Assembly (NCBI GenBank): GCA_934130045.1
Contig: CAKOXI010000001.1
Span: 14,900-78,899, forward strand
Origin: an uncultured Bacilli bacterium
GTDB lineage: Bacteria; Bacillota_I; Bacilli_A; RF39; UBA660
DNA: 64,000 nt
Direction: 5' to 3'
Part shown: positions 7,896 to 54,804 of the stretch, piece after piece
Position numbering within the stretch: position 1 is the stretch's first letter
Layout: each line of letters opens with the position of its first letter
Notes under the pieces: model-generated
Told to the model about the DNA's origin: nothing
Databases searched by the model: none
Seen by the model: the letters and a program-made list of their open reading frames with translations, nothing else
Made by a program: the position numbers and the translations under genes

Positions 7896-7904
7896 TTAAT
7901 CATC

Positions 7905-11852: not shown

Positions 11853-11877
11853 AAGCAATTTGTTGCTTTTTTTTTTC
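11852..11877 (+). terminator. Rho-independent terminator
   Basis: A hairpin aaagcaa-tttg-ttgcttt is followed by T9. Confidence 0.55.
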
Positions 11878-11907
11878 TTCTAAAGTATAATTAGTAAAGG
11901 TGATTTG

Positions 11908-14458: not shown

Positions 14459-14552
14459 ATTATCACTTCCATATAAAATTTTATCATAATTAATAAGAAA
14501 AAACAAATTGTGTTGAAGTTTAAAAAATGATAAAATGTTTTTGGTGTTTAAT

Positions 14553-24335: not shown

Positions 24336-24407
24336 TGTAAATAGATACCTTAATTTATTGATTTTTAAAAAAAAGTATATTATAATTAGAATGCGAGGTA
24401 GTATATA

Positions 24408-25064: not shown

Positions 25065-25078
25065 AAAAAGGTGAATTT

Positions 25079-25459: not shown

Positions 25460-25474
25460 CAAGGTGGTGATATA

Positions 25475-29336: not shown

Positions 29337-30152
29337 ATGAATAATGTAATTATTTCAGTAAAAAAATTTTTTACAAATAAGAATACTGTAACAATTCTTG
29401 GTGTAATTGTAATTATTTTAATTATTTATTTTGGTTACAATTCACAAATTAAAAAAGCAACTAACCCTATACAGGTTCCAGTTGCAAGTAAAACAATACA
29501 ACCTAGAACATTAATTACTGATGATATGATAAAATTAACAAGTATACCATCTGTATCAGTATCTACTAATGTAATACGTAGTAAGGCAAGTGTTGTTGGA
29601 AAATATACTGCTGTTAATACTGTAATACCAAGTGGTAGTATGTTTTATCAAGAAGCAGTTGTCAGTAAAAGACCTGATGCTGTTTTTGAAAATGTCAATG
29701 ATGGAGAAGTTTTATATAATTTTCCAGTTACTATGGCTTCAACTTATGGTAATTTGATTTTGCCTGGTAGTTATATTGATATTTATATGAAGGCTGTTAA
29801 TGGAACAAATGGATTAATGGTTGGCAAATTATTAGAAAATGTTAAAGTCTTAGCTGTTAAGGATAGTAGTGGTAATGATGTTTTTGAAGATACTTCAACA
29901 AATAGAACTCCTGCTTATATCTATTTTGGTGTAACAGAAGATATTAATATTTTATTACGTAAGGCTCAATATATGACAAGTAATTCTGTTGTGTTATTCC
30001 CTGTTCCACATGGTACAATTGTATCTGATGAGGATTTAGTAACTGAAGTTAGTACTCAGTATTTAAGAGATTTTATTAATGCTAATACAATTGTTATTGA
30101 TTCTACAAAAACTGATAATGTATCTAATACTACTACAAATGGTGAACAATAA
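29337..30152 (+). CDS. CpaB/RcpC-like pilus assembly protein (N-terminal TM plus SAF domain)
   Basis: An N-terminal TM is followed by a SAF-like segment (IQPRTLITDDMIKLTSIP...ASVVGKYTAVNTVIPSGSMF), matching the architecture of Flp-pilus CpaB. Confidence 0.5.
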   Translation: MNNVIISVKKFFTNKNTVTILGVIVIILIIYFGYNSQIKKATNPIQVPVASKTIQPRTLITDDMIKLTSIPSVSVSTNVIRSKASVVGKYTAVNTVIPSGSMFYQEAVVSKRPDAVFENVNDGEVLYNFPVTMASTYGNLILPGSYIDIYMKAVNGTNGLMVGKLLENVKVLAVKDSSGNDVFEDTSTNRTPAYIYFGVTEDINILLRKAQYMTSNSVVLFPVPHGTIVSDEDLVTEVSTQYLRDFINANTIVIDSTKTDNVSNTTTNGEQ

Positions 30153-31297
30153 TGAATGATAATATGTTTCAATCAATCGACTTTGGACCTTTAAAGGAGT
30201 ATCTTGATACTGATGATATCACCGATATTTCTTATAGTAATGGTGGACAAGTATGGTTGAAAACATTGTCAAGAGGAAATTATAGGGTAGAAAATCCTGC
30301 TATAAATAATCAGTTTATGGAAAAACTAGCATTTCAGTGTTCAAATGTTATGGGTAAAACATTTAATATGGCTCATCCGTTTTTGGATGCTGAAAGTGCT
30401 GAGTTACGTCTTAATTTTGTTCATGAATCTATTGCTAGAAATGGTATAGCTGTCGTAGTTCGTAAAACTCCAGCTAAAATTAGGCTTGAAAAAGAAAAAA
30501 TATTAAGAGAAAATTATATTACTCTTGATATACATAATTTTTTAGAATACTGTGTTTTAGGTCATTGCAACATAATTGTTTGTGGTGAAACTGGTTCTGG
30601 TAAAACTGAATTTGTTAAATATCTTGCTTCAAAAATTCGTGAAAATGAAAAGATAATAACAATTGAGGATACATTGGAACTTCACCTTGATAGAATATTT
30701 CCACATCGTGATATTGTTGCGATGAAAACGAATAATATTGCTTCATATACTGATGTATTGGTAACATGTATGCGCCAAAATCCTAAATGGATTTTATTAT
30801 CAGAGGTACGTAGTGCTGAAGCTGTTTTGGCGGTTCGTAACTCAATATCTTCAGGACACTATATTTTATCTACTATTCATGCTGATAAAGCTGCTTCAAT
30901 ACCAAGCCGTATGTATAGTTTGCTTGAGACTAATCAAGATATTGATCAATTTTTAAAGTCTATTCATAGATATGTTCAAATTGGTGTATATATACGTGGT
31001 TATCAAGATAAGAAAACAGGGCATTTTATTCGTGAAATAGCTGAAGTAACTGAATTTTATGTATCAAAAGATAATAAAGCTGAGTCAAATACAATTTATA
31101 GAAAAACTCCTGAGGGAAGTGTACATCGTAATAATCCAAGTCCATATTTAATTGATTATTTAGAGGCACAGGGAGTAATTTTACCTAAAGATATTATTGA
31201 TGTTGATAAAAATCAAAATGTAGTAGTTAATAATGATAATTTAAAAAACATTACAAATGAAAATAATACAGAAAATATAGAAGTTTTATTTGAATAG
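30152..31297 (+). CDS. TadA/CpaF-family secretion ATPase (VirB11/GspE superfamily)
   Basis: The product has Walker A IIVCGETGSGKTEF, an Asp box/Walker B IITIEDTLEL and a His box LSTIHAD. It is coupled to upstream and downstream genes. Confidence 0.75.
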   Translation: MNDNMFQSIDFGPLKEYLDTDDITDISYSNGGQVWLKTLSRGNYRVENPAINNQFMEKLAFQCSNVMGKTFNMAHPFLDAESAELRLNFVHESIARNGIAVVVRKTPAKIRLEKEKILRENYITLDIHNFLEYCVLGHCNIIVCGETGSGKTEFVKYLASKIRENEKIITIEDTLELHLDRIFPHRDIVAMKTNNIASYTDVLVTCMRQNPKWILLSEVRSAEAVLAVRNSISSGHYILSTIHADKAASIPSRMYSLLETNQDIDQFLKSIHRYVQIGVYIRGYQDKKTGHFIREIAEVTEFYVSKDNKAESNTIYRKTPEGSVHRNNPSPYLIDYLEAQGVILPKDIIDVDKNQNVVVNNDNLKNITNENNTENIEVLFE

Positions 31298-31308
31298 GAG
31301 GAGTTTGC

Positions 31309-32211
31309 ATGAATTTTCTAATGTTAATAATTATATCAGCTATTATAATATTTATTACTGTATACCGTAGAAATATTGGAACTGATGTTTATAAATTTTT
31401 TACAAATAAAGCTGGTTTAATTTATGATAAATTTGCCCCATATTCTTTTAAAATTATAAGAGAAAAGGTAAAAGATTTAGGTCAGGAATATACTCCAAGA
31501 CAATATGCAATTCAAATAGTTACTTTTGCAGTTTTTGGCTTTATGGTTTCATATATGTATTTTTACAGTATAATTATTTCTATTATGTATGCGTTAATAG
31601 CAATTGCTGTAATACCATATTTAACATACTTGCGTTGTAAAAGAGTATATAGTGAATTTATTTTTGAACAAATTCAGGTTTATACTACAAATACTATTAT
31701 GGAGTTTGCTACTACTCAATCCTTTGTTAAAGCTTTGGAAGGAGTAGTACAGTCAGGTGTACTTGAAGATCCTGTTAAGTCTGATGTTGAGTTGATGATC
31801 AGTATGGCCTATGAAAATGGTACAATTGAACAATCCTTAGTATATATGAATGAAAAATATGATTATTATGTTGTAAAAAATATGCATCAGTTGTTTTTAC
31901 AAATAACTAATGAAGGTAGTAAAGATTCTAGTGAAGCATTAGAGAATATGTCTCTTGATATAGATATGCTTGTAGAGGGAGTATATCGTGATAGGATGGA
32001 TCGTGCTAATTTCCATAAAAAATTTTTACAATTTGGTATAATTTTATATTTATTAGTTATGTTAGTTCAGTTTATGCTTGGAGTTGATTCCTATATTTCA
32101 TTATTAAGTAATTGGATGGTACAAGCAATACTTCATTTGATAATAGTTATTAATTCTTTATTTTTACTAAATGGAGAAAAATATTATAATGAGAATGTGG
32201 GTGGTGAATAA
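31309..32211 (+). CDS. TadB-like inner-membrane platform protein (T2SSF-type)
   Basis: It has an N-terminal TM plus two C-terminal TMs. The cytoplasmic segment carries T2SSF-like LEGVVQSGVL and GTIEQSLVYMNEKY elements. Confidence 0.5.
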   Translation: MNFLMLIIISAIIIFITVYRRNIGTDVYKFFTNKAGLIYDKFAPYSFKIIREKVKDLGQEYTPRQYAIQIVTFAVFGFMVSYMYFYSIIISIMYALIAIAVIPYLTYLRCKRVYSEFIFEQIQVYTTNTIMEFATTQSFVKALEGVVQSGVLEDPVKSDVELMISMAYENGTIEQSLVYMNEKYDYYVVKNMHQLFLQITNEGSKDSSEALENMSLDIDMLVEGVYRDRMDRANFHKKFLQFGIILYLLVMLVQFMLGVDSYISLLSNWMVQAILHLIIVINSLFLLNGEKYYNENVGGE

Positions 32212-32993
32212 TGAATTTTATAATAATTGCGGTAATTATTTTGTTTATATTAGAATATAACAAACAAATTGATACAAAAAAATTTATTAATGACATTGAC
32301 CCTTATTTTCGATTTTTAATGGAAGATGATTATAAATTTTTGTTAACCGTTAAATATGGTAATGATGTTGATTTGGACAAAATGTTTTCAAAAAGAATCA
32401 GAGATGGATTGGTAGTAATTGTTTTTATAATATTTTTGTTTTTATATAAATTAAATTTTTTATATGTTATTTTTTCCATAGTTGTTGGTTTTTTAGCATT
32501 CAAATTACCATACAATCAGTTAAAAAATTTTTATAAAAAAAATTTGTATAAAATTAATTTGATGTTACCTTATTATTTAAAAGGATTAGAAATTTTAATT
32601 CAACATTATACTGTTCCTGTTGCTTTGAGTCGTTCAGTGGAAACAGCTCCAGAAATTTTTCAACCTGGTTTACAAAGACTTGTAGCAAGAATTGAAGAAG
32701 GTGATTCATCTGTTGATCCATATATGGATTTTGCAAAAGAATATCCTGTTAGAGATTCGATGAGAATGATGAGACTATTATATCGTTTAGGACTTGGTAG
32801 TCAGGAAAATAAGCAAGAACAGTTAATAATGTTTTCTAAAACAGTTTCTACGTTACAAAATAAGTCTCGTGAACAAAAATATAAGGATCGTTTGGATCAT
32901 ATGGAAAATAAAACAATGCAGATGTTATTTGCAACAGGTGGTGGAATACTACTTTTGATGTTATTTGCAATGATGATGATGATGAAATTTTAG
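32211..32993 (+). CDS. TadC-like inner-membrane platform protein (T2SSF-type)
   Basis: Its start overlaps the TadB-like stop. The topology is TMs, a cytoplasmic helical domain (LQRLVARIEEGDS) and C-terminal TMs. It ends in an (ATG)5 repeat encoding MMMMM. Confidence 0.45.
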   Translation: MNFIIIAVIILFILEYNKQIDTKKFINDIDPYFRFLMEDDYKFLLTVKYGNDVDLDKMFSKRIRDGLVVIVFIIFLFLYKLNFLYVIFSIVVGFLAFKLPYNQLKNFYKKNLYKINLMLPYYLKGLEILIQHYTVPVALSRSVETAPEIFQPGLQRLVARIEEGDSSVDPYMDFAKEYPVRDSMRMMRLLYRLGLGSQENKQEQLIMFSKTVSTLQNKSREQKYKDRLDHMENKTMQMLFATGGGILLLMLFAMMMMMKF

Positions 32994-33066
32994 AGGAATT
33001 TGTTTATTTTATTTAGTTTATGATATAATATATACGTAATTAATTTTAAGTAAAGGTGGTGAGATA

Positions 33067-33285
33067 ATGAAAGAAGCTGCAAGTGAGGCAAATTTAACTG
33101 TTATTGCTATTGTATTAATAGGTGTTGTAGCTGCAGTAGTAACTCCACTTATTAGCGGGTTATTAAATGGCCAAGCAAAAAGATCATGTTGTAATTCTTT
33201 AGGTGGAGTTTATAGTGGTGGAAAATGTGAAGGTGTTGAAGAAGCCGAACTAAATACATGTATGGAAGGTCAAAAGAACGAATAA
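33067..33285 (+). CDS. Small (72 aa) Flp-pilin-sized membrane protein; candidate major pilin
   Basis: The product begins MKEAASEANLTVIAIVLIGVVAAVV, i.e. a short charged leader then a hydrophobic helix. Its position after tadC matches the flp position in Tad loci. A canonical G/XXXXEY motif is not evident. The tail has Cys pairs (SCCNS, GKCEG, NTCMEG). Confidence 0.35.
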   Translation: MKEAASEANLTVIAIVLIGVVAAVVTPLISGLLNGQAKRSCCNSLGGVYSGGKCEGVEEAELNTCMEGQKNE

Positions 33286-33308
33286 TATTTATTTGAAGGG
33301 AGTAACTT

Positions 33309-34028
33309 ATGAGGGAAGGTATTGGAAGTGTAGCATTATATAATATAATTATAGTATTTATTTTTGTAACTTTTTCTGTTTTAGCTGGAACCATGAGTTA
33401 CTCTAAAGCCTTTAAAACAAATAATAGAATTATAAATGCTATTGAAAAATATGAAGGATATAATGTTAATTCAAGCAACGAAATTGATGAAATCTTAGGT
33501 AATATTGGGTATAGATTAAGTGCATCAAAAAAATGTTCTAAAAAAAGAGGTTATGAAGCATTGAGTACTTTAAATAGTTCATATGATTTTTGTGTTTATG
33601 AAATACCAGAAGAAACACGTGAATGGAATGGTAGATATAGTACATATGGTGTTATTACCTATATCTATTTAGATATGCCAGTAGTTGGTGATTTTTTCAA
33701 AATACCTGTATATGGTCAAAGTAAACCAGTGTTTAGTTTTAATGCTAAAAATGCTCCATCGAGAGATGATTTGACTGTTACATATGATGTTGAGGTTGAG
33801 CCTGAATATTTGGCAAATCGTACTGATTGTTATATTATCTTTTCAAGAAGTAATCTACCTAAAACCTTTGATGATGTTTTTAATGTTATAAAAAGATTTT
33901 CTGATGGGGAAAGTGTTTCGGCTTTATTTAGCATTGAGGGCTTTAATATAAATGTATCTAATGGAAGATTAAATATAAGAGCCGATGGAGAATTAATTGA
34001 GTCTTTTTCGTACTGTATGATTGATTAA
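33309..34028 (+). CDS. TadE-like pseudopilin (N-terminal TM)
   Basis: An N-terminal hydrophobic segment (ALYNIIIVFIFVTFSVLAGTMSYSKAF) is followed by a domain paralogous to the next gene (YDFCVYEIPE...YGVITYIYLDMPVVG). Confidence 0.45.
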   Translation: MREGIGSVALYNIIIVFIFVTFSVLAGTMSYSKAFKTNNRIINAIEKYEGYNVNSSNEIDEILGNIGYRLSASKKCSKKRGYEALSTLNSSYDFCVYEIPEETREWNGRYSTYGVITYIYLDMPVVGDFFKIPVYGQSKPVFSFNAKNAPSRDDLTVTYDVEVEPEYLANRTDCYIIFSRSNLPKTFDDVFNVIKRFSDGESVSALFSIEGFNINVSNGRLNIRADGELIESFSYCMID

Positions 34029-34058
34029 TTTTATATTTTTAGTGATTGAGGTGATTAG

Positions 34059-34541
34059 ATGAAAGAGTCATTGGGTAATGCATTTGTTTTTGGATTTTTT
34101 ACAATTTTTGCTTTTTTAACTTTGTTTATTTTAATTACTGCAATCAATTATTCTAGGGCAGTAAAGATAAAAGATAGATTATTAACTTATGTTCAGTCAT
34201 ATGCTGAAAATCATGCTAATGTTGATAGTGATGGTGCTGTAGAAATTATAAATTTTGATGATCCTGAATTTAGGGATATGATTGATCATGAACTATCTGT
34301 TTTAGGATATAGAAGAAATGTTAATGTAACTAATACGACAGAATGTCCAAATCGTGAAGGGGCAATTATTGCAAATACTAGTAGTACTTATAAATACTGT
34401 ATTTATGCAAGGGAAACAAGCAGAGGATACTATTATGGGGTGATGACTTATATGTATTTTGATATACCTATAATTGGTACTACTTTAGAATTTCCAATAT
34501 ATGGTGAATCTAAAATAATTTATAATTTAGGTGATAAATAG
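34059..34541 (+). CDS. TadE/TadF-like pseudopilin, paralog of the preceding gene
   Basis: The product begins FVFGFFTIFAFLTLFILITAINYSRAV and contains YKYCIYARE...YGVMTYMYFDIPIIG. Confidence 0.45.
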   Translation: MKESLGNAFVFGFFTIFAFLTLFILITAINYSRAVKIKDRLLTYVQSYAENHANVDSDGAVEIINFDDPEFRDMIDHELSVLGYRRNVNVTNTTECPNREGAIIANTSSTYKYCIYARETSRGYYYGVMTYMYFDIPIIGTTLEFPIYGESKIIYNLGDK

Positions 34542-34553
34542 GAAGGTGTTAAA

Positions 34554-35564
34554 ATGAATGTAATTATTACTAATAAATATGCATCAATGTTGCAAGGACT
34601 TGATATAGATATTATCAAATCTTTAAATGGGGAATTTGATGCGGAAGAAATAATATCTACTTTTCAAAATTTTTATTTTCAAAGAATGATATTGGATATT
34701 ACTGCAATAAAAAATTATAGAGATATTAGGAATTTACAAAAACTTTCTATTGCCTTAGATATGGAAAAAGTAATTTTATTACTTGATGATTCTATTGAAA
34801 GTTCTTCAACAGAATATTTATCTAAGTTAATTTCGATGGGAATTTATAATTTTACTAAAAATGCTGAAGGAATTATGTATTTATATAATAATCCTAATTC
34901 ATATAGAGATGTTGCTCATATTCATCAACTTGAAATCGAAAAGGATGAAAAAGTTTCTGATGATTCTGGGGATACTTATGTGCGTGGTCGTGGAACTACT
35001 ATAATTGGTATAAAAAATATGACTAAGCATGCTGGAGCAACAAGTTTGATATATATGATGAAAAAGCAATTGTCTAAAAATTATTCTGTAATTGCAATTG
35101 AAGTTGATAAACGTGATTTCATGTATTATGGTGATAAGGAAATGGTTAATACTACAAGTGTTGAGGTTGGTAATACTATTGCTAAATATAGTGATAGAGA
35201 TATAGCACTTGTTGATATAAATGACAGTAAACAAGCTGAAAGTATTTGTAATACAGTAATTTGTTTATTAGAACCATCTATTATTAAACTTAATAAATTA
35301 ATGATGTTAGATAGACATGCTTTTTCTAAACTAAAAGGAAAAGATGAAAAATATAAAATAGTTTTAAATAAGAGTTTATTAAGTTCTAAGGATGTATTAG
35401 AATTTGCCTATGAGGCAAAAACAAAAGTTGTTTATAATTTGCCACCACTTGATGATCGTGAAAGAAATATTCATGCATTGAATGGATTTTTAATTAAACT
35501 TGGATTTGAAGTGGAAGAAGATTTTGAAGAACAAAAAAAGAATAAAATATTAGGACTTTTTTAA
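34554..35564 (+). CDS. Possible TadZ/CpaE-like (ParA/MinD-fold) protein with a degenerate P-loop
   Basis: Its position after the pseudopilins is suggestive. The segment GRGTTIIGIKNMTKHAGATSLIYMMKKQL resembles a deviant Walker A in which the GKGGxGKT consensus has been lost. Confidence 0.3.
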   Translation: MNVIITNKYASMLQGLDIDIIKSLNGEFDAEEIISTFQNFYFQRMILDITAIKNYRDIRNLQKLSIALDMEKVILLLDDSIESSSTEYLSKLISMGIYNFTKNAEGIMYLYNNPNSYRDVAHIHQLEIEKDEKVSDDSGDTYVRGRGTTIIGIKNMTKHAGATSLIYMMKKQLSKNYSVIAIEVDKRDFMYYGDKEMVNTTSVEVGNTIAKYSDRDIALVDINDSKQAESICNTVICLLEPSIIKLNKLMMLDRHAFSKLKGKDEKYKIVLNKSLLSSKDVLEFAYEAKTKVVYNLPPLDDRERNIHALNGFLIKLGFEVEEDFEEQKKNKILGLF

Positions 35565-40916: not shown

Positions 40917-41240
40917 ATGTATGGAAGATTTTTAATTCCTGCAAACTCGAAAAAATCGGCATTGATACTTGGTTTATTTAAGCCTGCCGATTTAGTTATA
41001 ATATCGATAGGTGTGATTTTGTCATTTATTTTATTACTTACATTACCTATTGAACAAATGACATATACGATAATTGCTATTTTTCCTGCTTCATTTGCTG
41101 CTTTCTTAGTTTTTCCAATGGCATATTATCACAATGTAAGAACATTCATTGTTATACTTTTTAAGTATTTAACATCTAGACAAAAATTTGTATGGAAGGG
41201 TTGGTGTTATATAGATGAAGTCAACAAATTCAAAAAGTAA
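40917..41240 (+). CDS. VirB3-like small membrane protein (PrgI/ConD/Orf17-type)
   Basis: The 107-aa product has two TMs and lies immediately upstream of, and overlapping, the VirB4 ATPase, the conserved position for VirB3-like proteins. The RBS is AAGGAGG. Confidence 0.5.
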   Translation: MYGRFLIPANSKKSALILGLFKPADLVIISIGVILSFILLLTLPIEQMTYTIIAIFPASFAAFLVFPMAYYHNVRTFIVILFKYLTSRQKFVWKGWCYIDEVNKFKK

Positions 41241-41775
41241 ATATACTAATGATGTATTTGTTCCAATTAAAAGCATAACAAATGGTATGATTATTTTGGA
41301 TAATAATTTAAAAGTTTCTGGTGTTAAGATTAGACCAAGAAATATATTTATTCTTGAACAAGAAGCGCAAGATATTATTATTTCAAATCTAAAAAATGTT
41401 TATAATATGATTGATTATGAATTTTGGATAATTGCAGCTGATAGACCAGTTGATATTCATGTATATTTATCTCAATTGCAACTTCTTTATAATTCTGTAA
41501 CAAGTCAAGCAAAAAGAAAATTAATAACGCAAGATATTCAAAAAGCAAATATGTTTATGAATAATAATGTTGTTGATACTGAGTATTATTTGCTTTTCAA
41601 ACATAAAGATATTGATGTTATACAAAAGAGAATTCGTAATTTAATTAATAATTTTGCAAATGCTGGTTTAACTACTGCGCAGACATCCAATGATGATTTA
41701 AGAATGGTATTAGATAACTTTTTAAATGGTGGTCAAACCACTACGTTTGGGACGGTGATGAGTGATGGATATTAA
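41215..41775 (+). CDS. VirB4-family T4SS ATPase, N-terminal fragment (frame 1)
   Basis: The 186-aa fragment ends 14 nt inside the next ORF. Together the two parts reconstitute a ~780-aa VirB4/TraE/ConE-like protein. Confidence 0.55.
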   Translation: MKSTNSKSKYTNDVFVPIKSITNGMIILDNNLKVSGVKIRPRNIFILEQEAQDIIISNLKNVYNMIDYEFWIIAADRPVDIHVYLSQLQLLYNSVTSQAKRKLITQDIQKANMFMNNNVVDTEYYLLFKHKDIDVIQKRIRNLINNFANAGLTTAQTSNDDLRMVLDNFLNGGQTTTFGTVMSDGY

Positions 41776-43549: not shown

Positions 43550-43562
43550 TTTTATTTATTAG

Positions 43563-45281: not shown

Positions 45282-45295
45282 AAAATGGTGGTTTT

Positions 45296-45994
45296 ATGAA
45301 ATATAAATTTGTTTTAATTCTTTTTTCATTATTATTTTGTTGTACTGCCTGTTCTATTAACTATAATATTGAATTAAATGAAAGTAATTATTATGAAAAA
45401 ATATATGCCATTGAGAATCATATCGATTATTTTAAAAAGAATAATAATTCATATAAAAATTTAGTTGGATATAACAAATTAAACGTCGAGACTGAACTTG
45501 ATCAACCACAGGATTTAGATTATTTAAAACTTTATAATTATTTTAATGTAATAGAATCTGGTGCTTATTTGGATGGAGAAATTAGAAGCTTTGCTGAATA
45601 CAGCTTTGGATTATATAAATGTTATGATGATTATATTTTAGAAAATAATGATAATATCATAACTTTAAAAACTAGTGGTAATTTTCTTTGTGATAATATT
45701 TTAAGTCAAACAGATAATTTTTATGTTAATATTAAAAGTGATTATAAATTGATTGAAACTAATGCAAATACAGTTAAAAATAATATTTATACTTGGAATT
45801 TAAAAGAAAATGTTGATAAAAATATAATTTTGAAATTGAAAGTTGAAAATTTAAATAATAAAATAAATGAAAGCTCGAAAAGTAAATTTTTAGATTTTAA
45901 ATTTTTAACAGTAACTTTATTTGGAACTGTATTATTAATAACATTTATATCTTTGTTTATATATATTAAAAATAAGAATTCAAATAAAATTTGA
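45296..45994 (+). CDS. Hypothetical lipoprotein with a C-terminal TM anchor (T4SS accessory)
   Basis: The product has a signal peptide/lipobox LLFCCTAC and a C-terminal TM FLTVTLFGTVLLITFISLFIYI. Its stop overlaps the virD4 start. Confidence 0.4.
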   Translation: MKYKFVLILFSLLFCCTACSINYNIELNESNYYEKIYAIENHIDYFKKNNNSYKNLVGYNKLNVETELDQPQDLDYLKLYNYFNVIESGAYLDGEIRSFAEYSFGLYKCYDDYILENNDNIITLKTSGNFLCDNILSQTDNFYVNIKSDYKLIETNANTVKNNIYTWNLKENVDKNIILKLKVENLNNKINESSKSKFLDFKFLTVTLFGTVLLITFISLFIYIKNKNSNKI

Positions 45995-48117
45995 ATGGAG
46001 TGATACTAATGAAATTAAAATTTAGAGCTACACCAAAGGATATGTTAGCATTTGCTGGTTTTTCTGTTGTTCTTTTGTATTTTGTTGCAATTGCAATTTT
46101 AAATATATCAACATTTGTAAAAACTGGTGAATTATCTGGTTTTAATCCATTTCCAGCATTTGTTGGTGAAAATTTACCTAAAACAATGATTGCATTTTTA
46201 CTTATTATCATTTTTGTTATAACTAGTGTTTCTTCAACTATATTTAATAGGGAAAAGGGTATTGGATTTGAAATAAAAGATAAGGCTGATAAAGGATATT
46301 CTCGTTGGGCAAAAGAAAAAGAAATGAAAAAAGAATTAAAAATGGTTTTACCTGGTGAGGAACATTCGCAATATGGCGGAATACCTTTAATTAATAATGG
46401 TAAAGAAATATGGGTCGATGATGGTGAGTATCATAATTTAATTATTGGTTCTACTGGTAGTGGTAAAACCCAAATGACTGTTCAACCAATGGTTAAGTGT
46501 TTAGCTAAAAGTAATCAGTCAATGATTATTACAGACCCAAAAGGTGAAATATATGAAAATAATGCTACGGAATTAAGAGAACGTGGTTATAAAATTGTTT
46601 TACTTAATTTTCGTGATCCACAAAAAGGAAATTGTTGGAATCCATTAGCACTCCCTTATTCACTTTATAAATCAGGAAATTCTGATAAAGCTAATGAGTT
46701 GCTTGATGACCTTGCTATGAATATCTTGTATGATGAGAAATCCCAAAATTCTGATCCATTCTGGGAAAAAACTTCTGCTGATTATTTTGCAGGACTGGCT
46801 TTAGCTCTATTTGATGATGCTAAAGAGGAAGAAATAAATTTAAATACAATAAATTTAATGACTACTGTTGGTGAAGAAAAATTTAGAAATACAACATATA
46901 TGAAAGAATACTTTAGCTATAAAGATCAAGCATCTCCTGCTTATGTTAATGTTTCTAGTACTTTATTAGCACCATCTGATACAAAAGGGTCAATTTTATC
47001 AGTATTTAAGCAAAAAATAAAGTTGTTTTCTTCTCGTGAAAATTTATCAGAAATGTTATCACATAGTGATTTTGATATGAAAGATATCGGTAGAGAAAAA
47101 ACTGCAGTATTTATTGTTGTTCAAGATGAAAAAAAGACATACCATTCTTTAGTAACAATATTTATAAAGCAAGTATATGAAACTTTAATTGATGTTGCAC
47201 AAGAATCTGGTGGAAAACTTCCATTTAGAACTAATTTTATTCTTGATGAATTTGCTAATATGCCACCATTAAAGGATGTTACTACAATGGTTACTGCAGC
47301 TCGTAGTAGGGCAATTAGATTTAGTTTTATTATTCAAAATTTTGCACAATTATATCAAGTGTATGGAAAAGAAAATGGTGAAACTATAAAAGGTAACTGT
47401 GGTAATATTGTTTATTTAATAAGTAGTGAACTTGCTGCATTAGAAGAATTGAGTAAAATGTGTGGTGAAGAAAAATCAAAAGAAAAAGATAAAACAGCAT
47501 CTACACCACTTGTTACTGTCAGTGATTTACAAAGACTTCCACAATGGAGTATGGTTGTTTTAAGAATTAGAATGATGCCATTTAAAACGAAATTGACACC
47601 TAATTGGAAAATGGAAAAAGAAAATTTGTGGGGTAAAAAGTACGAAAAAGCTGAATATCCTACACGTGAAAAAGAGCCATTACATTTATTTGATTTAAAG
47701 AAATTTGTTGAAGAAAAAAATGAAGAAAAAATGAGACAAATGATGAATGGCAATAATGATAACACTATTCCTGGAATGATGGGTGGAAATCCTTTTGGTT
47801 TTGGTGGAGGTATTCCTCCAATGTTTGGTGGTATGAGTTCAAATAATAATGCAGGAAATAATTCTCAAGGTGGATTTAATGTTGAAGATATAATTAAAAA
47901 GATTGATGAAAAAATTGCTGCAATAGAGGAAGAAGAAAGACAACAATCATTGCAATCTGAAAGTAAAAAAGATATACTTGATAATAATGATGATAAAATT
48001 ATTCAACAAAATACAGAATTTGATAACAATATTATTCAAGAAAAATCAGAACCTGATAATAATTCAGAAGTTTCAGATGATCAGTTTTTTGATGATTTCT
48101 TCAGTGATGAAGATTAA
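45991..48117 (+). CDS. VirD4/TraG/TcpA-type coupling protein (T4CP)
   Basis: The product has N-terminal TMs, Walker A LIIGSTGSGKTQ and Walker B NFILDEFAN. Its tail is G/N-rich low-complexity with an acidic C-terminus (DDQFFDDFFSDED). Confidence 0.8.
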   Translation: MNGVILMKLKFRATPKDMLAFAGFSVVLLYFVAIAILNISTFVKTGELSGFNPFPAFVGENLPKTMIAFLLIIIFVITSVSSTIFNREKGIGFEIKDKADKGYSRWAKEKEMKKELKMVLPGEEHSQYGGIPLINNGKEIWVDDGEYHNLIIGSTGSGKTQMTVQPMVKCLAKSNQSMIITDPKGEIYENNATELRERGYKIVLLNFRDPQKGNCWNPLALPYSLYKSGNSDKANELLDDLAMNILYDEKSQNSDPFWEKTSADYFAGLALALFDDAKEEEINLNTINLMTTVGEEKFRNTTYMKEYFSYKDQASPAYVNVSSTLLAPSDTKGSILSVFKQKIKLFSSRENLSEMLSHSDFDMKDIGREKTAVFIVVQDEKKTYHSLVTIFIKQVYETLIDVAQESGGKLPFRTNFILDEFANMPPLKDVTTMVTAARSRAIRFSFIIQNFAQLYQVYGKENGETIKGNCGNIVYLISSELAALEELSKMCGEEKSKEKDKTASTPLVTVSDLQRLPQWSMVVLRIRMMPFKTKLTPNWKMEKENLWGKKYEKAEYPTREKEPLHLFDLKKFVEEKNEEKMRQMMNGNNDNTIPGMMGGNPFGFGGGIPPMFGGMSSNNNAGNNSQGGFNVEDIIKKIDEKIAAIEEEERQQSLQSESKKDILDNNDDKIIQQNTEFDNNIIQEKSEPDNNSEVSDDQFFDDFFSDED

Positions 48118-48168: not shown

Positions 48169-48468
48169 GTGATTATATTTATGCAAAGGATATCAATTAA
48201 TGATTTAATACCAATAATTAATAGTATAAAAATAATTGATATTAGAAGTATTCAAAGTTTTAATAATAATCATATTCCTAATTCAGTAAATATACCTGTT
48301 GAAAAATTACTTTATAATCCAGAACAATATATTAATAAAAATGATATATATTATATTTATTGTCAAAAAGGCATATCTAGTTATAATGTATGTAATATAT
48401 TAAATAAATTAGGTTATAGGACAATAAGTATTGATGGTGGGTATGAAGCTTGGATATTAAAAAATTAA
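48169..48468 (+). CDS. Rhodanese-like domain protein
   Basis: The 99-aa product has an active-site loop YIYCQKGISS. Confidence 0.65.
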   Translation: MIIFMQRISINDLIPIINSIKIIDIRSIQSFNNNHIPNSVNIPVEKLLYNPEQYINKNDIYYIYCQKGISSYNVCNILNKLGYRTISIDGGYEAWILKN

Positions 48469-48508
48469 AAAAATCAACATGAAAAAAATGTTAAAAAAGT
48501 AGTTAAAT

Positions 48509-48553
48509 AAAAAACTGATATTTAGAATTATATTTCTATTTATCAGTTTTTTA
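48509..48553. terminator. Bidirectional rho-independent terminator between convergent genes
   Basis: The structure aaaaaactgata-(22-nt loop)-tatcagtttttt is an 11-bp perfect inverted repeat flanked by A/T runs. Confidence 0.55.
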
Positions 48554-48766
48554 TTGATGAATATATGATTTTTTTATTCAATCATATCAGTTAATTGTTT
48601 CCAAAAATTATCTTTTTTAATTACAATATTTGAGCATTTATTAGAATTTTAATCATTTTGTTTTGATATTAATATTATTATCTTCATTTAATAATAATAT
48701 AATAAAAAAACTATTGATATATGTTACAGAAACTCTGTATATCTTTTCAATAGTCTCTCTATTTTT

Positions 48767-49585
48767 TTATTTTCTGCGACCTTTATTATAATCATTATGA
48801 TGATACATATCTACATCATTACTATTATTATATTTTGCCGCTATAATCCTCGCTAAAGAACTTGGATCATTACTTCCATTTAAAACTTCTTGATACATTT
48901 TTGCTTCTTTTGATTCAATATCAAATTTTTGATCGGCTTTTTCTTGAGTAATTCTCATGTCTTGTTCATGATTTTTTTCTTTTATTGTTCTTTGTGCTTC
49001 TGAATTAGTTTTATCGGCTTCTATATGTCTTATGTGTGGAACAATAATGCTATTTGAATTAATTGCTGTAATTTCAACACCATATTTGCTTAAAAAATTT
49101 TTAAAAAATGTATTATCAAAATCTATTTTTGAGATATTTGTTTTATGTGAAATTTCATCGGCATTATATTTTTTTAAATATGAGCTTATTAATGTTTCAC
49201 AATCTTCTCTTATAGTTGTTTTTATATCTTGCGTTGTGTCGACCATTTTTTTTGAATCTCTTATAATATATTTTATATACCAATCAATTTGAACAATTTG
49301 CTCATCTTTTGAATTATATGATTGAACTGGAATATCAAATGTTGTTTCTCTTTTATCTGTTATTTGATGTATTGTTCTCCAAGGAAATTTAACAAAAAAT
49401 GGTCCATTTGCAACTTTTGTTTGTCCACCTTCTGAGTATACAACATCAATATTATTATTTAAAATATTGATTCCACTGTGTAATTGTAAGTTTGATATTG
49501 AATTTTTTTCTTTATTTTGATCTGTTTTTTTATCTGAATTATTTGAAAATTCTGGATATTTTTTACTTAATTCTTCATATGTCAT
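48767..49585 (-). CDS. SPFH/band-7 domain protein
   Basis: I trimmed the start to MTYEEL (ATG at 49585, with an AAAGGGGGA RBS). The SPFH-like core is VVYSEGGQTKVANGPFFVKFPW...QIDWYIKY. Confidence 0.55.
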   Translation of the reverse strand: MTYEELSKKYPEFSNNSDKKTDQNKEKNSISNLQLHSGINILNNNIDVVYSEGGQTKVANGPFFVKFPWRTIHQITDKRETTFDIPVQSYNSKDEQIVQIDWYIKYIIRDSKKMVDTTQDIKTTIREDCETLISSYLKKYNADEISHKTNISKIDFDNTFFKNFLSKYGVEITAINSNSIIVPHIRHIEADKTNSEAQRTIKEKNHEQDMRITQEKADQKFDIESKEAKMYQEVLNGSNDPSSLARIIAAKYNNSNDVDMYHHNDYNKGRRK

Positions 49586-49691
49586 ATGATATTCCCCCTT
49601 TGTATGCCTATATATTAGCACATTCAAATTTTTTTGTCAATTTATATTGTAAAACATAATGTAAATATATTATAATTATTATGGTGATAAA

Positions 49692-50756: not shown

Positions 50757-50940
50757 TGAAATAATTTTATATAATATTTAGTATTAGTAAGTTATATTTT
50801 ACTAATATTTTTTTGCATAAAATAAAAAAATTTTCTTTCTTTAAAAAATAAATAATTAAATTAATATATAAATGCAGAATATATATTTTTTTATTTTGAA
50901 ATAATGTTTAAACTATATTAAAGAAAACTAAAAGAATGGA

Positions 50941-51754
50941 TGTTTCTGTTTCTGTCATTGATCGTATACTAAATGAAATATCATCTAATACTGTTTTAAG
51001 GCATCCTACTTTACCAAAATCAATGAATTGGGATGAATTTAAAGCACTAAAGGTAAAATTACTTTTATTATTACTAATAATGTTAGTTTATTTGATATAA
51101 ATTATTCTAGAAAATCTAGAGATTTAGAAAAAAATTTACAGATATTATAAAAAAGAACGTGGCAAAGTAAAACATATATAAATTGATTTTTATTCAGGCT
51201 ATGTCTATTTGGCTAAAAAATTATTAATATATCTATTGATAGATTTCATATTGTAGTTCAAGCTTATAATGCTTTGAATAGTACTAGGGTTAGTTTATGT
51301 AAAAAAGATAATACTAATTATAATAAATTAAAAGACTATTGGAAATTAATCGTTAAAAATAAAAATGATTTATCTGAAGTAATATAATACTCTAAACAAT
51401 TTTCACAAAGATATAGTTAAAGTCAATATTTGATTAATACAAAGCCAATTTTAAAAGCCACTTATGAATGTTATCAATATTTAATCAATTCTTTAAAAAA
51501 AGATTTTAACAAGTTTAAAGCAATGACATTAAATCAAAATAAAAATTTATCTTCAAAAATTGAAACAAGCATTAATGTTATATAAAGAAAATATTAAATA
51601 CATTGAAAACTCATTTAAATATGATATTAATAATGGAATTATAGAAAGCATTGATAATTTAATTAAATTTATTAAAAGAATTACTTTTGACTATAGAAAA
51701 TATAACCATTTTCTATTTTGTATTTTCTTAATTAAAGTCATTATAAAAGGATGA
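50941..51754 (+). pseudogene. Decayed ISL3-family transposase remnant, with multiple frameshifts and stops
   Basis: Fragmentary translations match ISL3 transposase hallmarks. An N-terminal fragment reads HPTLPKSMNWDEFKALK (ISL3 ...DEFK... motif). The C-terminal ORF 51560-51754 reads NGIIESIDNLIKFIKRITFDYRKYNHFLFCIFL, comparable to the consensus N-IEG-NN-IK-IKR-A-GYRNF-NF--RIL. No intact reading frame remains. Confidence 0.5.
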
Positions 51755-51923
51755 ATTTCATCATCCCTTATAATCATACTTCATTTATCAAATTTATTGT
51801 TTGCCAACACTATTTGACAAGAAATCTAAACTTTATATCAATTTTCAGCATTATTGGAACTAATTTTTAAGAATTATATTTATTTATAATATTAAAATTA
51901 TAGATATTTATTAAATAATATAT

Positions 51924-52739
51924 TTATTGATCGCATTCGTTTATACATATATTTACTATGTTATTTTTTAGATATGTTTCTGCATATTCTTCACATATTT
52001 CACTTGGATTATCAACATACTCAGTATTATATTTTTCTTTATACTCTATATATTTATTATATTGATTTGAGCAATTTTTTTTATCAACGTCATCTTTGGT
52101 TATATCTTCACATGCTTCAGCACCATCAAAGCAATCTTCTAATTCTCTGCATGCCATGCCAAACTCTCCATTATCATAATCAAAGGCTTTTTTACAGTTG
52201 TCTATAATTATTCCTCGATCTGTAAATTTTGGAATGTAGGTTCCCAATTTATAATTTTCTACACATGTGTCAACGCATTTAGTTACATCTGGAGTAGTAT
52301 ATTTTAAAGTGTAAGTTGACGAAGAAGTGGTAGAGTTTGAATTGTCATCATTGTTATGACCACCACTAGGTGTAAAATAATTTTTATCATGTTGCCTATA
52401 GCCACCATTTAACATTAAATCTAAACATGTAAAGGTATTACCTGCAGTTGTTTCCCCGTTTGTATCAAGATCTGATATTAATTTTACAACCCAACCAACT
52501 ATGACTGCAACAAAAAATACTAATGCACCAGCAACAAGTTTTTGTAAAAAAGAACTTTGTGCTTTTTTTATTTGATCTTCTTGTTGTGCCATAACGGCTT
52601 TAAGAAAGTCAATACTTCCCATTATAATTATTAATAATGGGACCAAAAATTTAATTATTGTATAAATATTTGCTATAAGTTGAACTGTTTGATCAGGAAG
52701 CCAGCCACAATCTCTATTTACTGTATCTAATATAAGCAT
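51924..52739 (-). CDS. Two-TM hairpin family member 3 with a long Cys-rich C-terminal extension
   Basis: Its N-terminal ~100 aa align to the 35660 protein (LLIIIMGSIDFLKAVMAQQEDQIKKAQSSFLQKLVAGALVFFVAVIVGWV). The 170-aa tail has about 12 Cys. Confidence 0.5.
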   Translation of the reverse strand: MLILDTVNRDCGWLPDQTVQLIANIYTIIKFLVPLLIIIMGSIDFLKAVMAQQEDQIKKAQSSFLQKLVAGALVFFVAVIVGWVVKLISDLDTNGETTAGNTFTCLDLMLNGGYRQHDKNYFTPSGGHNNDDNSNSTTSSSTYTLKYTTPDVTKCVDTCVENYKLGTYIPKFTDRGIIIDNCKKAFDYDNGEFGMACRELEDCFDGAEACEDITKDDVDKKNCSNQYNKYIEYKEKYNTEYVDNPSEICEEYAETYLKNNIVNICINECDQ

Positions 52740-52741
52740 AA

Positions 52742-53077
52742 TTATTCTCCACTATTATTATTTCCAAGTATTGAATTTACGCAACTTAAGGCATCATTTG
52801 CACCACTTACATTTTTTCCAATAACATTCATGCCAAATTTTACAATGGCAAGAACAAAAAATGCTAAAAAACCAGTAAGTAATCTTTTTAAAAAAACACT
52901 TGTATTTTTCTTTATTTCATCTTCTTTACCCGATATAACAGCTTTTACGAAGTCTATTAATCCAAATATTATAATAGCAATTGGAATTGCCATCAATAAT
53001 ATATTATATATTATTCCTATTGTATTTGTTATTTCTGATGGTATTGAGCCACAATCTAATATAAACATTTTTAACAT
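52742..53077 (-). CDS. Two-TM hairpin family member 4 (short form)
   Basis: The product contains IPIAIIIFGLIDFVKAVISGKEDEIKKNTSVFLKRLLTGFLAFFVLAIVKF. Confidence 0.5.
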   Translation of the reverse strand: MLKMFILDCGSIPSEITNTIGIIYNILLMAIPIAIIIFGLIDFVKAVISGKEDEIKKNTSVFLKRLLTGFLAFFVLAIVKFGMNVIGKNVSGANDALSCVNSILGNNNSGE

Positions 53078-53122
53078 CTCCTTTAAACAAATTTTATAAT
53101 AAAACTATATATATGTATTTAA

Positions 53123-53803
53123 TTATTGATTCTTACAATCTTTCATACAAGTGTAATCTCTATCTTGACCAGAAAGTATACATGTTTCTAGACACTCTTT
53201 ATATGTTATATTATTTTCAGTTTTACATATTTCGTTAGTATATAATGGCGAATTGAATTTTTGATAGTTTTCAATACATTTTTTATAAGCAGCATTTGTT
53301 GTAGTAGTTGTTGTTGTCGCATTAACACTAGAACAACTTGAGTTACATTTATTTTGAGCTTCTTTAAGACAATCTTGTTCTTTATTAGTACCGTTTTGAT
53401 TTTTTGATAAGCAAATATTATAGTTTTGATTACAGCACTCTGTATTATTTTCATATTTTCCTGGTTGAATAACTGTACCGCTATTTCCACCTAAAATATC
53501 ACTTGCACATTTAAATGCACTAGATGCATCACCAACTCCTGCATTGCCTAATATTGTAAATACCCATTTTACAAGTGAAAAAACAAAGAAGGCTAAAAGT
53601 CCATATAATAGTCTTTTTACAAATAACCTTGAATTTATATCTTTTTCATCTTTACCCATTATTGCTTTTAAAAAATCAAGTGTTCCAAACAGAACAATGC
53701 CAACTGGGATTAGATACCTTATAATGTTGTATGCTTCATGCAATATGGCAACAATTATACTTGGTAAACTACAAGACCCTTTAATTGTTACTAAAAAATA
53801 CAT
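53123..53803 (-). CDS. Two-TM hairpin family member 5 with a Cys-rich, Thr-run C-terminal extension
   Basis: The product contains IPVGIVLFGTLDFLKAIMGKDEKDINSRLFVKRLLYGLLAFFVFSLVKWV. Its tail has a TTTTTTT run and many Cys. Confidence 0.5.
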   Translation of the reverse strand: MYFLVTIKGSCSLPSIIVAILHEAYNIIRYLIPVGIVLFGTLDFLKAIMGKDEKDINSRLFVKRLLYGLLAFFVFSLVKWVFTILGNAGVGDASSAFKCASDILGGNSGTVIQPGKYENNTECCNQNYNICLSKNQNGTNKEQDCLKEAQNKCNSSCSSVNATTTTTTTNAAYKKCIENYQKFNSPLYTNEICKTENNITYKECLETCILSGQDRDYTCMKDCKNQ

Positions 53804-53910
53804 ATTATCTAGTCCTTTCCTAAATTTATTATAGCATACAACTTTATTTATATCAAATAAAAATGTTATTTTTGTATATATTATTTTTATTTTGTAAAAA
53901 ATAAATTAGG

Positions 53911-54804
53911 GTGATAACTATGTTCTTGGTATATATTGAAAATAATAGTTTCTTAAGTAAAATTGTTACATATTTAGATTATGGTAAAATAGATTATACA
54001 TTTGATATAAATTCTAAATATGATAAAATTATAATTGCTCAAAATAGTTCTAAAACATTAGAATTAATGAAGAAAGCTAAAAAAATTATATATGTTATGT
54101 ATTTAGATGAGTTAAAATATTATAATAATTATTATAGAAATAATAAGCGTAGTAATGTATATATAAGTAATATGAAGAAATTTTTTAGTTATTGTAATAT
54201 TATAATAACAAGTTTACCTTTTTTTAAAAAAATAGTAGCTTCAAAAAAAGTATATATATTACCTTTAGAAAATATTTATTTTTCAGTATGTAAAAATAAG
54301 TTATTAAATTTTGGAAAAAAAACAATTACTATTATTGATAGTAATTATAAATATTTAAATAATTCTATAGAACTTATTAATAAATATCCTAATTATCAAT
54401 TTAATTTAATTGGTTTTAATAGTAATTTAAAAAAATCTGATTTAAAAATTTTAAGTGATATACCAAGTAATGTAACTTTATATAAATATTGTAATGATAT
54501 TCTTTTAAATAATTATATAGTTAATAGTATGATTATAGTTTCTTTTGATAGTATTTTGGATAATAATTATATAAATATTTGTTTAAATATGAAAAAAAAT
54601 ATTTTGCTTTTAAACAGTAAATTATATTCAGATTATTTTGTAGATAATAAGAATATATATTTATTTGATAGTAATGATATTTTAAAGAAATTTAATAAAA
54701 TAATAAGTAATAGAGTTAGTAATTTAGGTGGTGAAGGTTATAATTTAATATGCAACAATAATTTTAAAGAAATTGCTGACAAGTTTTGTAAACTTATTAA
54801 ATAA
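53911..54804 (+). CDS. Hypothetical protein
   Basis: The 297-aa product is N/K/I-rich. No family is recognised. Confidence 0.35.
   Translation: MITMFLVYIENNSFLSKIVTYLDYGKIDYTFDINSKYDKIIIAQNSSKTLELMKKAKKIIYVMYLDELKYYNNYYRNNKRSNVYISNMKKFFSYCNIIITSLPFFKKIVASKKVYILPLENIYFSVCKNKLLNFGKKTITIIDSNYKYLNNSIELINKYPNYQFNLIGFNSNLKKSDLKILSDIPSNVTLYKYCNDILLNNYIVNSMIIVSFDSILDNNYINICLNMKKNILLLNSKLYSDYFVDNKNIYLFDSNDILKKFNKIISNRVSNLGGEGYNLICNNNFKEIADKFCKLIK

Follow-up and report, generated by a model that had tools for sequence, protein, structure and literature searches.

VirB2-type subunits are considered absent from the type IV secretion systems (T4SSs) of Gram-positive bacteria, the sole exception, unique among monoderms, being the Patescibacteria (2025 review, PMC12857230). 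Arrays of 2-11 divergent VirB2-like pilin genes are known there from 383 assemblies (PMC12102498, PMC10633639, PMC12857230). In Southlakia epibionticum ML1 both the six-gene pilin array and type IV pili are essential (PMC12102498, PMC10633639), and in Patescibacteria the array is essential for epibiotic growth (PMC12857230). The present analysis concerns an array in a 64,000-nucleotide stretch of an uncultured Bacilli bacterium of the RF39 lineage (assembly GCA_934130045.1, contig CAKOXI010000001.1, positions 14,900-78,899), referred to below as the window. Three tandem genes (genes 1, 2 and 3, the satellite array) encode paralogous two-helix membrane hairpins, two of them with Cys-rich C-terminal tails; two further paralogs (island copies 1 and 2) are located in a cluster of Tad-pilus and T4SS genes (Table 1). 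The best explanation, held with about even confidence, is that genes 1-3 constitute a satellite operon of VirB2-like subunits of this chromosomal Tad pilus and T4SS, displaying exchangeable contact domains. A search of the accessible literature for such a system in RF39 or gut Bacilli found no earlier description.

The closest functional parallel is found in the VirB2-like pilin arrays of Patescibacteria. Tandem divergent two-helix pilin-like proteins, matched by PF18895, are encoded in both cases next to a chromosomal monoderm (MPF-FATA-like) T4SS with VirB3, VirB4 and VirB6, and the bacteria of both groups have reduced genomes and are uncultured or depend on a host. Each T4SS is encoded or required jointly with a pilus of the type IV-filament kind. 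The Patescibacteria T4SS is relaxase-less; in the 64 kb window no annotated ORF has a relaxase domain, though several ORFs have no match at all. The Patescibacteria number of 2-11 divergent paralogs near virB4 has its counterpart in five copies in the window and 1-8 in related genomes. However, the lineage described here belongs to gut Bacilli (Firmicutes), its accompanying pilus is of the Tad/Flp type, and it possesses VirD4, whereas none is recognisable in S. epibionticum. About one third of the family members carry large Cys-rich ectodomains at either end, and the satellite array, lying outside the T4SS, undergoes wholesale tail replacement at the strain level; neither fused ectodomains nor such replacement is described in PMC12102498, PMC10633639 or PMC12857230.

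By sequence, the machine of the window is closest to the T4SS of mycoplasma integrative and conjugative elements (ICEs; Mbov_0395/0396/0397), in which small hairpin membrane proteins are likewise encoded directly upstream of VirB6-like (Mbov_0396) and VirB4 (Mbov_0397) genes. NCBIfam already labels Mbov_0395 of these elements 'pilin-like conjugal transfer protein'. The window system differs from Mbov_0395 and PF18895 proteins in its multi-copy arrays and ectodomain fusions, and in having no obvious mobile element. With the conjugative pilins VirB2, TrbC and TraA of Gram-negative T4SSs the hairpins share a hydrophobic helix-loop-helix and a basic loop, and would share the outside position of both termini. 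The long cleavable leader of these pilins is missing from four of the five copies, the organism is a monoderm, and large folded domains are appended. Bartonella and Anaplasma are known to have expanded sets of VirB2 paralogs with variable exposed parts (cited in PMC12102498). Neisseria pilE/pilS resembles the array in a conserved N-terminal assembly domain followed by a hypervariable exposed C-terminus exchanged at conserved junctions. Those proteins, however, are type IV rather than T4SS pilins, and their variation is intragenomic, from silent cassettes; in the 64 kb window no silent donors were found, and the variation is between strains.

The common N-terminal hairpin proposed for the three genes in the preliminary description was confirmed by BLASTP far beyond chance. 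Gene 1 and gene 3 align across residues 1-112 (E 6e-19); gene 2 matches island copy 1 with 45% identity (E 2e-17) and, more weakly, island copy 2 (E 5e-05). The five paralogs are 19-46% identical to one another, and their alignment contains an invariant Cys before helix 1, an invariant G..D..K ending helix 1 and an invariant Cys after helix 2. Taken alone, the proteins of the window are sub-threshold in Pfam and NCBIfam: gene 3 matches PF18895 (T4SS_pilin) at E 1e-3 and 19.6 bits (gathering cut-off 26.6 bits), island copy 2 at E 0.0088 and 16.5 bits, genes 1 and 2 give no PF18895 match, and the E value against NF045849 is 0.67. The link to PF18895 therefore needed a family-wide scan, in which 60 of 98 aligned relatives matched it at E<=0.01 (best 1.8e-6), twice as many as matched any other family. 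Proteins 62-65% identical to gene 2 also carry a precomputed PF18895 domain. A profile of nine hairpins detected 9,704 cluster representatives (defined at 50% identity) at E<=1e-3 and 5,471 at E<=1e-10, among 1.84 billion; no family member carries a name in any source consulted for annotation. On this profile evidence the hairpin was concluded to represent a divergent, unannotated branch of the VirB2-like family PF18895, and the earlier guess of a pilin was right in kind.

The AlphaFold model of gene 2 (98-sequence alignment; mean predicted local distance difference test, pLDDT, 78) comprises helices 14-49 and 52-89 and a short third helix 94-103, which holds the second Cys. Hydropathy peaks and 4-6 Lys or Arg residues in the loop are present in all five paralogs, so that the two hydrophobic helices with a short charged loop characteristic of PF18895 are found both in the model and throughout the set. 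Sequence profile search of the hairpin against the PDB gave no match, and neither sequence nor Foldseek comparison revealed significant similarity to solved pilins.

Species-representative genomes were scanned for the system with an alignment of four closer hairpin sequences. The scan returned 79 loci from metagenome-assembled genomes (MAGs) of uncultured gut 'Bacilli', 'Tenericutes', 'Mollicutes' or 'Firmicutes CAG:884'; one is a complete chromosome of 1.49 Mb, and most comparison contigs are short metagenome assemblies. A hairpin hidden Markov model applied to the open reading frames (ORFs) of these loci found arrays of 1-8 paralogs. The order TadA … p336 – array – VirB6 – VirB3-like – p186 – VirB4 is observed in most loci that reach far enough. 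The Tad and T4SS supercluster with its pilin-like array is a lineage-wide feature. The species of the window and its relatives (L004-L014; L-numbers denote comparison loci or contigs, P-numbers protein alleles) add the three-gene satellite array between p297/RNase R and RmuC. All strains and related species examined have it at the same position, each with three intact ORFs. Extended members are, in most species, part of the T4SS array itself.

In the distant MAG SIG204 (L062), other family members lie between RNase R, RmuC and VirD4. Since the satellite position there holds different members, the position is old and its content fluid. The two members of L062 are located at 9659-11899 and 14091-15542: one is a 746-residue protein with the hairpin at residues 108-203 and a C-terminal extension of 543 residues, the other a 483-residue protein with an N-terminal extension of 391 residues. 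Gene 2 had no tblastn match in 72,556 plasmids, while VirB4 matched 2,079 Firmicutes plasmids at about 30% identity; the hairpin is therefore not a component of ordinary Gram-positive plasmid T4SSs at this sensitivity.

Architectures were counted in 251 distinct family members, with a longest-ORF caller that inflates some N-terminal extensions. Bare hairpins account for 162 members. N-terminal extensions of at least 60 amino acids (aa) occur in 70 and reach about 585 aa; 67 of them open with a hydrophobic stretch resembling a signal peptide. C-terminal extensions of at least 40 aa occur in 20 members, 15 of which have fewer than 15 residues before the hairpin and thus no room for a signal peptide. 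Cysteine makes up 2.8-4.4% of the extensions versus 1.0% of other ORFs of the same loci. Its count is even in 19 of the 20 C-terminal extensions and in all gene 3 alleles (0, 10, 12, 14, 16 or 18). The two cysteines flanking the hairpin are both present in 205 members, both missing in 11, and single in 6 (Fisher p 4e-14, not corrected for phylogeny). The conserved Lys and Arg residues are located in the loop. Because extensions occur at either end, a signal peptide accompanies only the N-terminal ones and the cysteines are paired, the loop would lie inside and both termini outside the cell. Disulfide-bonded extensions on outer termini fit the VirB2 topology. Head-to-tail cyclisation of TrbC and VirB2 pilins joins their N- and C-ends; by analogy, the flanking Cys pair could be a disulfide stapling the two outer ends.

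Genes 1-3 and island copy 1 begin 8-10 residues before the conserved N-terminal Cys and are devoid of a signal peptide; among the five paralogs, a classical Sec signal peptide is present in island copy 2 only. The N-terminus M-F/Y-I/L-L-D/N…C-G, 5-12 residues before the invariant Cys, is common in members without a signal peptide (e.g., at window positions 53068 and 52739, and in L083, L037 and L047). It may be a recognition or processing motif and is not a lipobox. Gly follows the Cys in 120 of 210 members, and a lipobox-like triplet precedes it in 17 of 210; a lipoprotein reading of this Cys was rejected. Further predicted extracellular parts of the Tad/T4SS apparatus are unusually Cys-rich as well: the Flp-like pilin and the M23 peptidase at their C-termini, and the first VirB6-like protein in its ectodomain. 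This hints that the organism could rely widely on extracellular disulfides.

The tails of the satellite proteins measure about 117 aa in gene 1, 2 aa in gene 2 and 156 aa in gene 3, differing only slightly from the lengths given earlier (about 110, 0 and about 170 aa). They had been described as completely divergent and rich in Cys, Asn and Thr. BLASTP indeed finds no significant similarity between the tails of genes 1 and 3, and the composition agrees, with the addition of Asp: N 15.5%, T 12.1% and C 10.3% in gene 1, D 11%, N 11% and C 6.5% in gene 3. The run of seven Thr, reported as encoded by a trinucleotide tract, was also found. This poly-Thr linker separates two modules of the gene 1 tail, the proximal one conserved and the distal one variable between strains. 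For the gene 3 tail the model, of fair confidence (pLDDT 74-93), is a bundle that is helical throughout, with CX3C pairs on the first and last helices; no relative of its fold was detected in the PDB or BFVD.

Comparison across strains revealed cassette-like replacement of the tails, as the idea of a variable set required. Tail classes were assigned by default BLASTP on defined head/tail splits; an uncorrected BLASTP clustering was discarded, since low-complexity and Cys-rich matches chained nearly all tails together. The first approximately 114 residues of the gene 3 alleles are 86-100% identical, and their tails fall into at least five classes without BLASTP similarity between them: A (the window, P0001, P0002), B (P0005, P0006), C (P0007, with a triple twin-CX3C repeat), D (P0008, P0011, P0012) and E (P0009, low-complexity and Cys-free). 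Heads that are 99-100% identical carry different tails in P0002 (A), P0005 (B) and P0011 (D). Within class A, at identities down to 48%, all 10 Cys and many Tyr are invariant. The gene 1 alleles P0018-P0022 are alike before the poly-Thr run, which comprises 6, 7 or 10 residues depending on the strain, and differ after it. Some modules are common to the two genes: 'VNDYI.TDDCK…' occurs in gene 1 allele P0020 and gene 3 allele P0011, 'HGSSGGHNAGGGGSGGHR' in P0022 and P0009, and 'C..HCDTE.NGG' in P0021 and P0007, respectively.

The exchange has sharp borders. In strains 96-97% identical in RNase R, p297 and RmuC, the nucleotide alignment breaks inside the array: in gene 1 at 53297, within the (TTG)n tract (alignment to L007), and in gene 3 at 52341-52373, in the linker, resuming at the stop codon or in the 3' flank. 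The two genes assort independently: gene 3 tails A, C and D are all found alongside gene 1 of the window type, and both B and D alongside P0019. The heads of L004 and L007 differ by a synonymous divergence (dS) of only 0.03, yet bear tails A and B, while the window and L004 both carry tail A (dS 0.11) on heads with dS 0.40. Head and tail genealogies conflict. The dS of the array genes is 0.15-0.40 versus 0.06-0.08 in the flanking genes. The ratio of nonsynonymous to synonymous divergence (dN/dS) of the hairpin is 0.05-0.17 in every comparison that offers more than a few substitutions; that of the gene 1 tail is 0.17-0.37, and that of the gene 3 tail is 0.24, 0.95 and 2.05, values derived from few substitutions in three or four strains and from non-independent pairs. 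The claim made is that tail evolution appears relaxed or diversifying relative to the head; positive selection is not claimed.

A tblastn search of the 64 kb window for silent copies of alternative tail classes found only the expressed gene 1, and intragenomic switching from silent cassettes was rejected for this window. The documented process is population-level cassette replacement. Of the variable surface protein set proposed originally, the conserved anchor with strain-variable, probably exposed domains is thus retained, while a system of intragenomic antigenic variation is not visible.

According to the preferred explanation, each protein would insert as a helical hairpin with its Lys/Arg-rich loop in the cytoplasm and both termini outside, the two ends probably being tied by a disulfide between the nearly invariant flanking cysteines. 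Gene 2 and the island copies could serve as plain structural subunits, and genes 1 and 3 as minor subunits with disulfide-rich helical ectodomains on flexible Thr/Asn-rich stalks. The hairpins would build a pilus-like filament or a cell-wall-spanning stalk with the T4SS, on which the ectodomains act as exchangeable contact or recognition modules. Ectodomain cassettes could be replaced by homologous recombination, with the conserved hairpin or linker and the 3' flank as its anchors, under diversifying pressure from targets, phages or host immunity. The paralogy with T4SS-array genes, the family membership at the profile level, the genomic association with the T4SS, the tail replacement at linker breakpoints and the cysteine statistics are observations; the topology, the disulfides, a joint assembly with the T4SS and a role in adhesion or recognition would follow from them by inference. 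The hypervariability of other exposed T4SS parts between the same strains was also counted in favour of this explanation.

Several points weigh against it. The general view is that Gram-positive T4SSs do not produce pili (PMC12857230). The hairpin proteins of the window all score below the PF18895 gathering threshold (19.6 versus 26.6 bits at best), and the three array genes are located outside the T4SS operon, on the opposite strand. A domain of 117-156 aa per subunit would be hard to pack in a VirB2-type filament, so that the extended proteins could be minor subunits at most. The gene 3 tail fold has no known relative, and adhesion is therefore not positively indicated. Expression, surface location and disulfides are putative, and the organism is an anaerobe; the dN/dS ratios come from the small sample noted above.

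The location and strand of the array, together with its own promoter-like site, would also suit surface antigens or adhesins independent of the T4SS, for which the hairpin is a mere anchor and the tails vary to evade host immunoglobulin A or phages that use the proteins as receptors. The hypervariability of the tails between strains and their raised dN/dS agree with this, as does the hypervariability of a neighbouring SPFH-like gene that is not a T4SS part. However, a mere anchor would not need the constraint on the hairpin (dN/dS 0.05-0.17) or the family-invariant Cys pair and G..D..K. The array is also always near the T4SS (members in L062 again lie between RNase R, RmuC and VirD4), and in most species extended members stand within the T4SS array. 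Independent surface antigens are therefore considered unlikely, though conceivable. Exclusion determinants such as F TraS/TraT and SXT Eex are typically small, membrane-anchored, encoded beside T4SS genes and polymorphic in specificity classes. Discrete tail classes on near-identical heads resemble such classes, and variation of other exposed T4SS proteins between the same strains would suit ectodomains that mark 'self' and block or license T4SS-mediated contact. This reading is rather improbable: Pfam and NCBIfam link the proteins to no known exclusion protein, either by sequence or by profile. DNA transfer by the system is not indicated, and no relaxase domain was found in the annotated ORFs of the window. 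The usual layout is a single gene; here two genes are variable, their tails assorting independently, and a third is invariant. No exclusion protein is known to be a pilin homolog.

A conserved N-terminus followed by sharply delimited, strain-swapped and unrelated C-termini is a hallmark of polymorphic toxins and bacteriocin-like effectors, in which a conserved N-terminal anchor carries interchangeable toxic domains (contact-dependent inhibition, Rhs, LXG or MafB proteins). The gene content is at odds with it, since no candidate immunity gene is present: gene 1 is followed by gene 2, itself a conserved hairpin, and gene 3 by the insertion sequence (IS) remnant or RmuC. The tails match no toxin fold in Pfam, the PDB or BFVD, and that of P0009 is merely low-complexity and free of Cys. 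Cys-paired helical modules and Thr/Asn-rich linkers are rather typical of structural surface domains, and the N-terminal extensions of most species do not suit a C-terminal toxin logic. The toxin/immunity reading, very improbable, was rejected on gene content and the absent fold match. Functionless drift of a leftover duplicated pilin array is suggested by the degraded ISL3 element that adjoins it and by gene 3 tail dN/dS near 1 in some pairs. It is largely refuted, and scarcely credible, given the three ORFs intact in all strains and related species, the constrained hairpin, the invariant Cys and many Tyr of tail A and the even Cys counts in every class; ribosome-binding sites and a near-consensus promoter are present, and the IS is absent in many array-bearing strains.

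The preferred explanation leads to a further and distinctly doubtful proposal: reduced-genome, uncultured gut Bacilli could carry a vertically inherited, relaxase-less Tad and T4SS machine that builds a VirB2-type filament for obligate contact with a partner or host, and not for plasmid conjugation, the swappable ectodomains being determinants of partner range. If true, this would be a second, independent example of an episymbiont toolkit, with a built-in modular specificity system. Should the tails be contact determinants, they could provide a sequence-readable marker of the interaction partners of uncultivated bacteria, a possible handle for cultivation with the right partner, and a natural scaffold to display folded domains on a T4SS-type filament. 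The conservative reading is a well-delimited modular diversification of surface proteins in a prevalent, unstudied gut lineage. The new elements are the lineage, the size of an unnamed VirB2-like family (approximately 9,700 cluster representatives) in uncultured small-genome gut Bacilli, where such pilins are not thought to occur, the fusion of Cys-rich ectodomains at either end, and the tail replacement in the satellite array, by which ectodomains are exchanged as cassettes between strains of human guts.

Table 1. Features of the satellite array, the Tad and T4SS cluster and their flanks (positions in the 64 kb window; genes 1-3, satellite array; island copies 1 and 2, paralogs in the T4SS cluster)
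Feature	Position	Strand	Description
Tad/Flp-type pilus genes	29337..35564	plus	directly upstream of T4SS; RcpC/CpaB-like, TadA/CpaF ATPase, membrane proteins, TadE-like proteins
Flp-like pilin	33067-33285	plus	72 aa
p336 (TadZ-like)	34554-35564	plus	
Island copy 1	35661-36004	plus	113 aa, bare hairpin between TadZ-like p336 and VirB6-like genes
Island copy 2	36129-36476	plus	115 aa; Sec signal peptide (…TVFA/ESC…, cleavage at the slash); weak PF18895 match
VirB6/TrbL_4-like genes	36511-38658, 38758-40887	plus	
VirB3/VirB4 in three ORFs	40917-41240, 41215-41775, 41762-43549	plus	107, 186 and 595 aa
M23 peptidase	43563-45281	plus	
232-aa protein	45296-45994	plus	
VirD4 coupling protein	45991-48117	plus	CD1115 family, above cut-off
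ISL3-family transposase remnant	50936..51870	plus	degraded, broken short ORFs, directly 3' of gene 3
Gene 3	52739-51924	minus	271 aa; hairpin residues 1-116 (nt 52739-52392)
Gene 3 linker and tail	residues ~117-150 and ~151-271	minus	low-complexity linker; helical domain with 10 Cys; tail class A
Gene 2	53068-52742	minus	108 aa, bare hairpin; mechanical ORF from 53077, 111 aa
Gene 1	53803-53123	minus	226 aa; hairpin residues 1-110 (nt 53803-53474); 12 Cys in tail
T7 run of gene 1	53296-53317 (residues 163-169)	minus	ACA/ACT codons on coding strand; (TTG)7.3 on plus strand (Tandem Repeats Finder)
Promoter-like site	53828..53856	minus	TTGATA-17 nt-TGnTATAAT, 11/12, ~25 nt upstream of gene 1 ribosome-binding site
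p297	53911..54804	plus	294-297 aa, divergent from gene 1

The three minus-strand ORFs were recovered at the positions reported for them, convergent with the plus-strand T4SS cluster, which ends at 48117, as had been noted; the array lies 3.8 kb beyond VirD4. The sequence AAAGGAG directly before the first ATG suggests that the true start of gene 2 is at 53068, and 108 aa is also the length assigned by gene callers on other contigs. Gene 2 is the most conserved gene of the array (89-96% aa identity on other contigs). For island copy 1 the start is most likely the ATG at 35661, which is preceded by AGGAGG 7 nt upstream and gives the 113 aa called elsewhere; four of the five paralogs are therefore devoid of a signal peptide. 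Genes 1 and 2 are separated by 45 nt, and the stop of gene 2 and the start of gene 3 by 2 nt, the GGAGAA of gene 3 being located inside the end of gene 2. Genes 2 and 3 each have their own ribosome-binding site. AGGAAAGGA stands before gene 1, as does the best promoter-like site of the region; promoter-like matches are common in this AT-rich DNA (28 versus 23.6 expected), and the gene 1 site counts only as agreement with the consensus. The array showed no terminator-like hairpin. The putative expression signals thus comprise a near-consensus promoter and good ribosome-binding sites, and the layout is consistent with one operon.

The divergent neighbour p297 always adjoins the three-gene array in the same and related species (L001-L013, L090, L092) and has no Pfam, NCBIfam or PDB sequence match. 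It could possibly modify or regulate the array. A glycosyltransferase acting on the poly-Thr linkers was suspected and found no support in Pfam or the PDB. On contig L094 (1.8x coverage) the usual p297/RNase R flank is gone upstream of window position 53857, and gene 1 (L094 1-1005) is in frame with a fragment of 3-methyladenine glycosylase (PF03352); this flank may reflect a genuine promoter rearrangement or a chimeric assembly.

Profile matches place the T4SS in the Gram-positive type, with VirB4 and VirD4 of the Firmicutes/Tenericutes type. The VirB6-like and VirB4 proteins are closest to the mycoplasma-ICE families Mbov_0396 and Mbov_0397. The ATPase part of VirB4 matches the Mbov_0397 model at E 2e-106, and the three VirB3/VirB4 ORFs jointly cover it (positions 2-95, 96-276 and 295-891). 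Most related loci share this arrangement in three ORFs, which is therefore characteristic of the lineage and not the result of a frameshift error. The island copies are located directly upstream of the VirB6-like genes. The surroundings of the cluster are housekeeping genes (gatA/gatB, aspS, D-Ala-D-Ala carboxypeptidase, ScpA/B, RmuC, RNase R). Pfam domains of relaxases, integrases or replication proteins were found in none of the annotated ORFs of the window, several of which (534, 1148, 251 and 254 aa among others) have no match at all. The T4SS is flanked by housekeeping genes and keeps its place among strains and related species, so that an association with a mobile element is not obvious. 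The head of the Tad-like cluster (22731-28921, plus strand) comprises four ORFs of 534, 218, 126 and 1148 aa without a Pfam match, followed by a 133-aa ORF with DUF5411.

The IS remnant beside the array is real: 51560-51754 matches the C-terminus of PF01610 (DDE_Tnp_ISL3) at E 2.2e-08, and its ORFs are broken. The remnant had been taken as a sign of past rearrangement, a role that the strain comparison does not bear out. It accompanies tail A only (the window, L004, L005 and partly L094), is absent in L007 (tail B) and L092 (tail D), and many strains without it still carry the array; tails B, C and D were swapped in strains devoid of the remnant at this site. It is therefore part of one haplotype and not a general mechanism.

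Strain divergence in the T4SS (41707-45964, plus strand) is uneven. Between strains of the same species, identity reaches 96% for VirD4 and the rhodanese but only 80-83% for VirB4 and the N-terminal portion of M23, and the C-terminal portion of M23 and the 232-aa protein (44601-45964) fail to align altogether. This suggests that exposed T4SS parts may undergo allelic replacement. A second hypervariable gene, SPFH/Band-7-like (48767-49627, minus strand), is located between the rhodanese and RmuC. Its versions of 286, 410 or 478 aa barely align, the flanking genes being 96% identical between those strains, and no nucleotide alignment was obtained across 48468-49550. An unrelated small paralog array at 6761-8762 (minus strand) consists of three tandem genes with Tim44-like domains (195, 197 and 285 aa).

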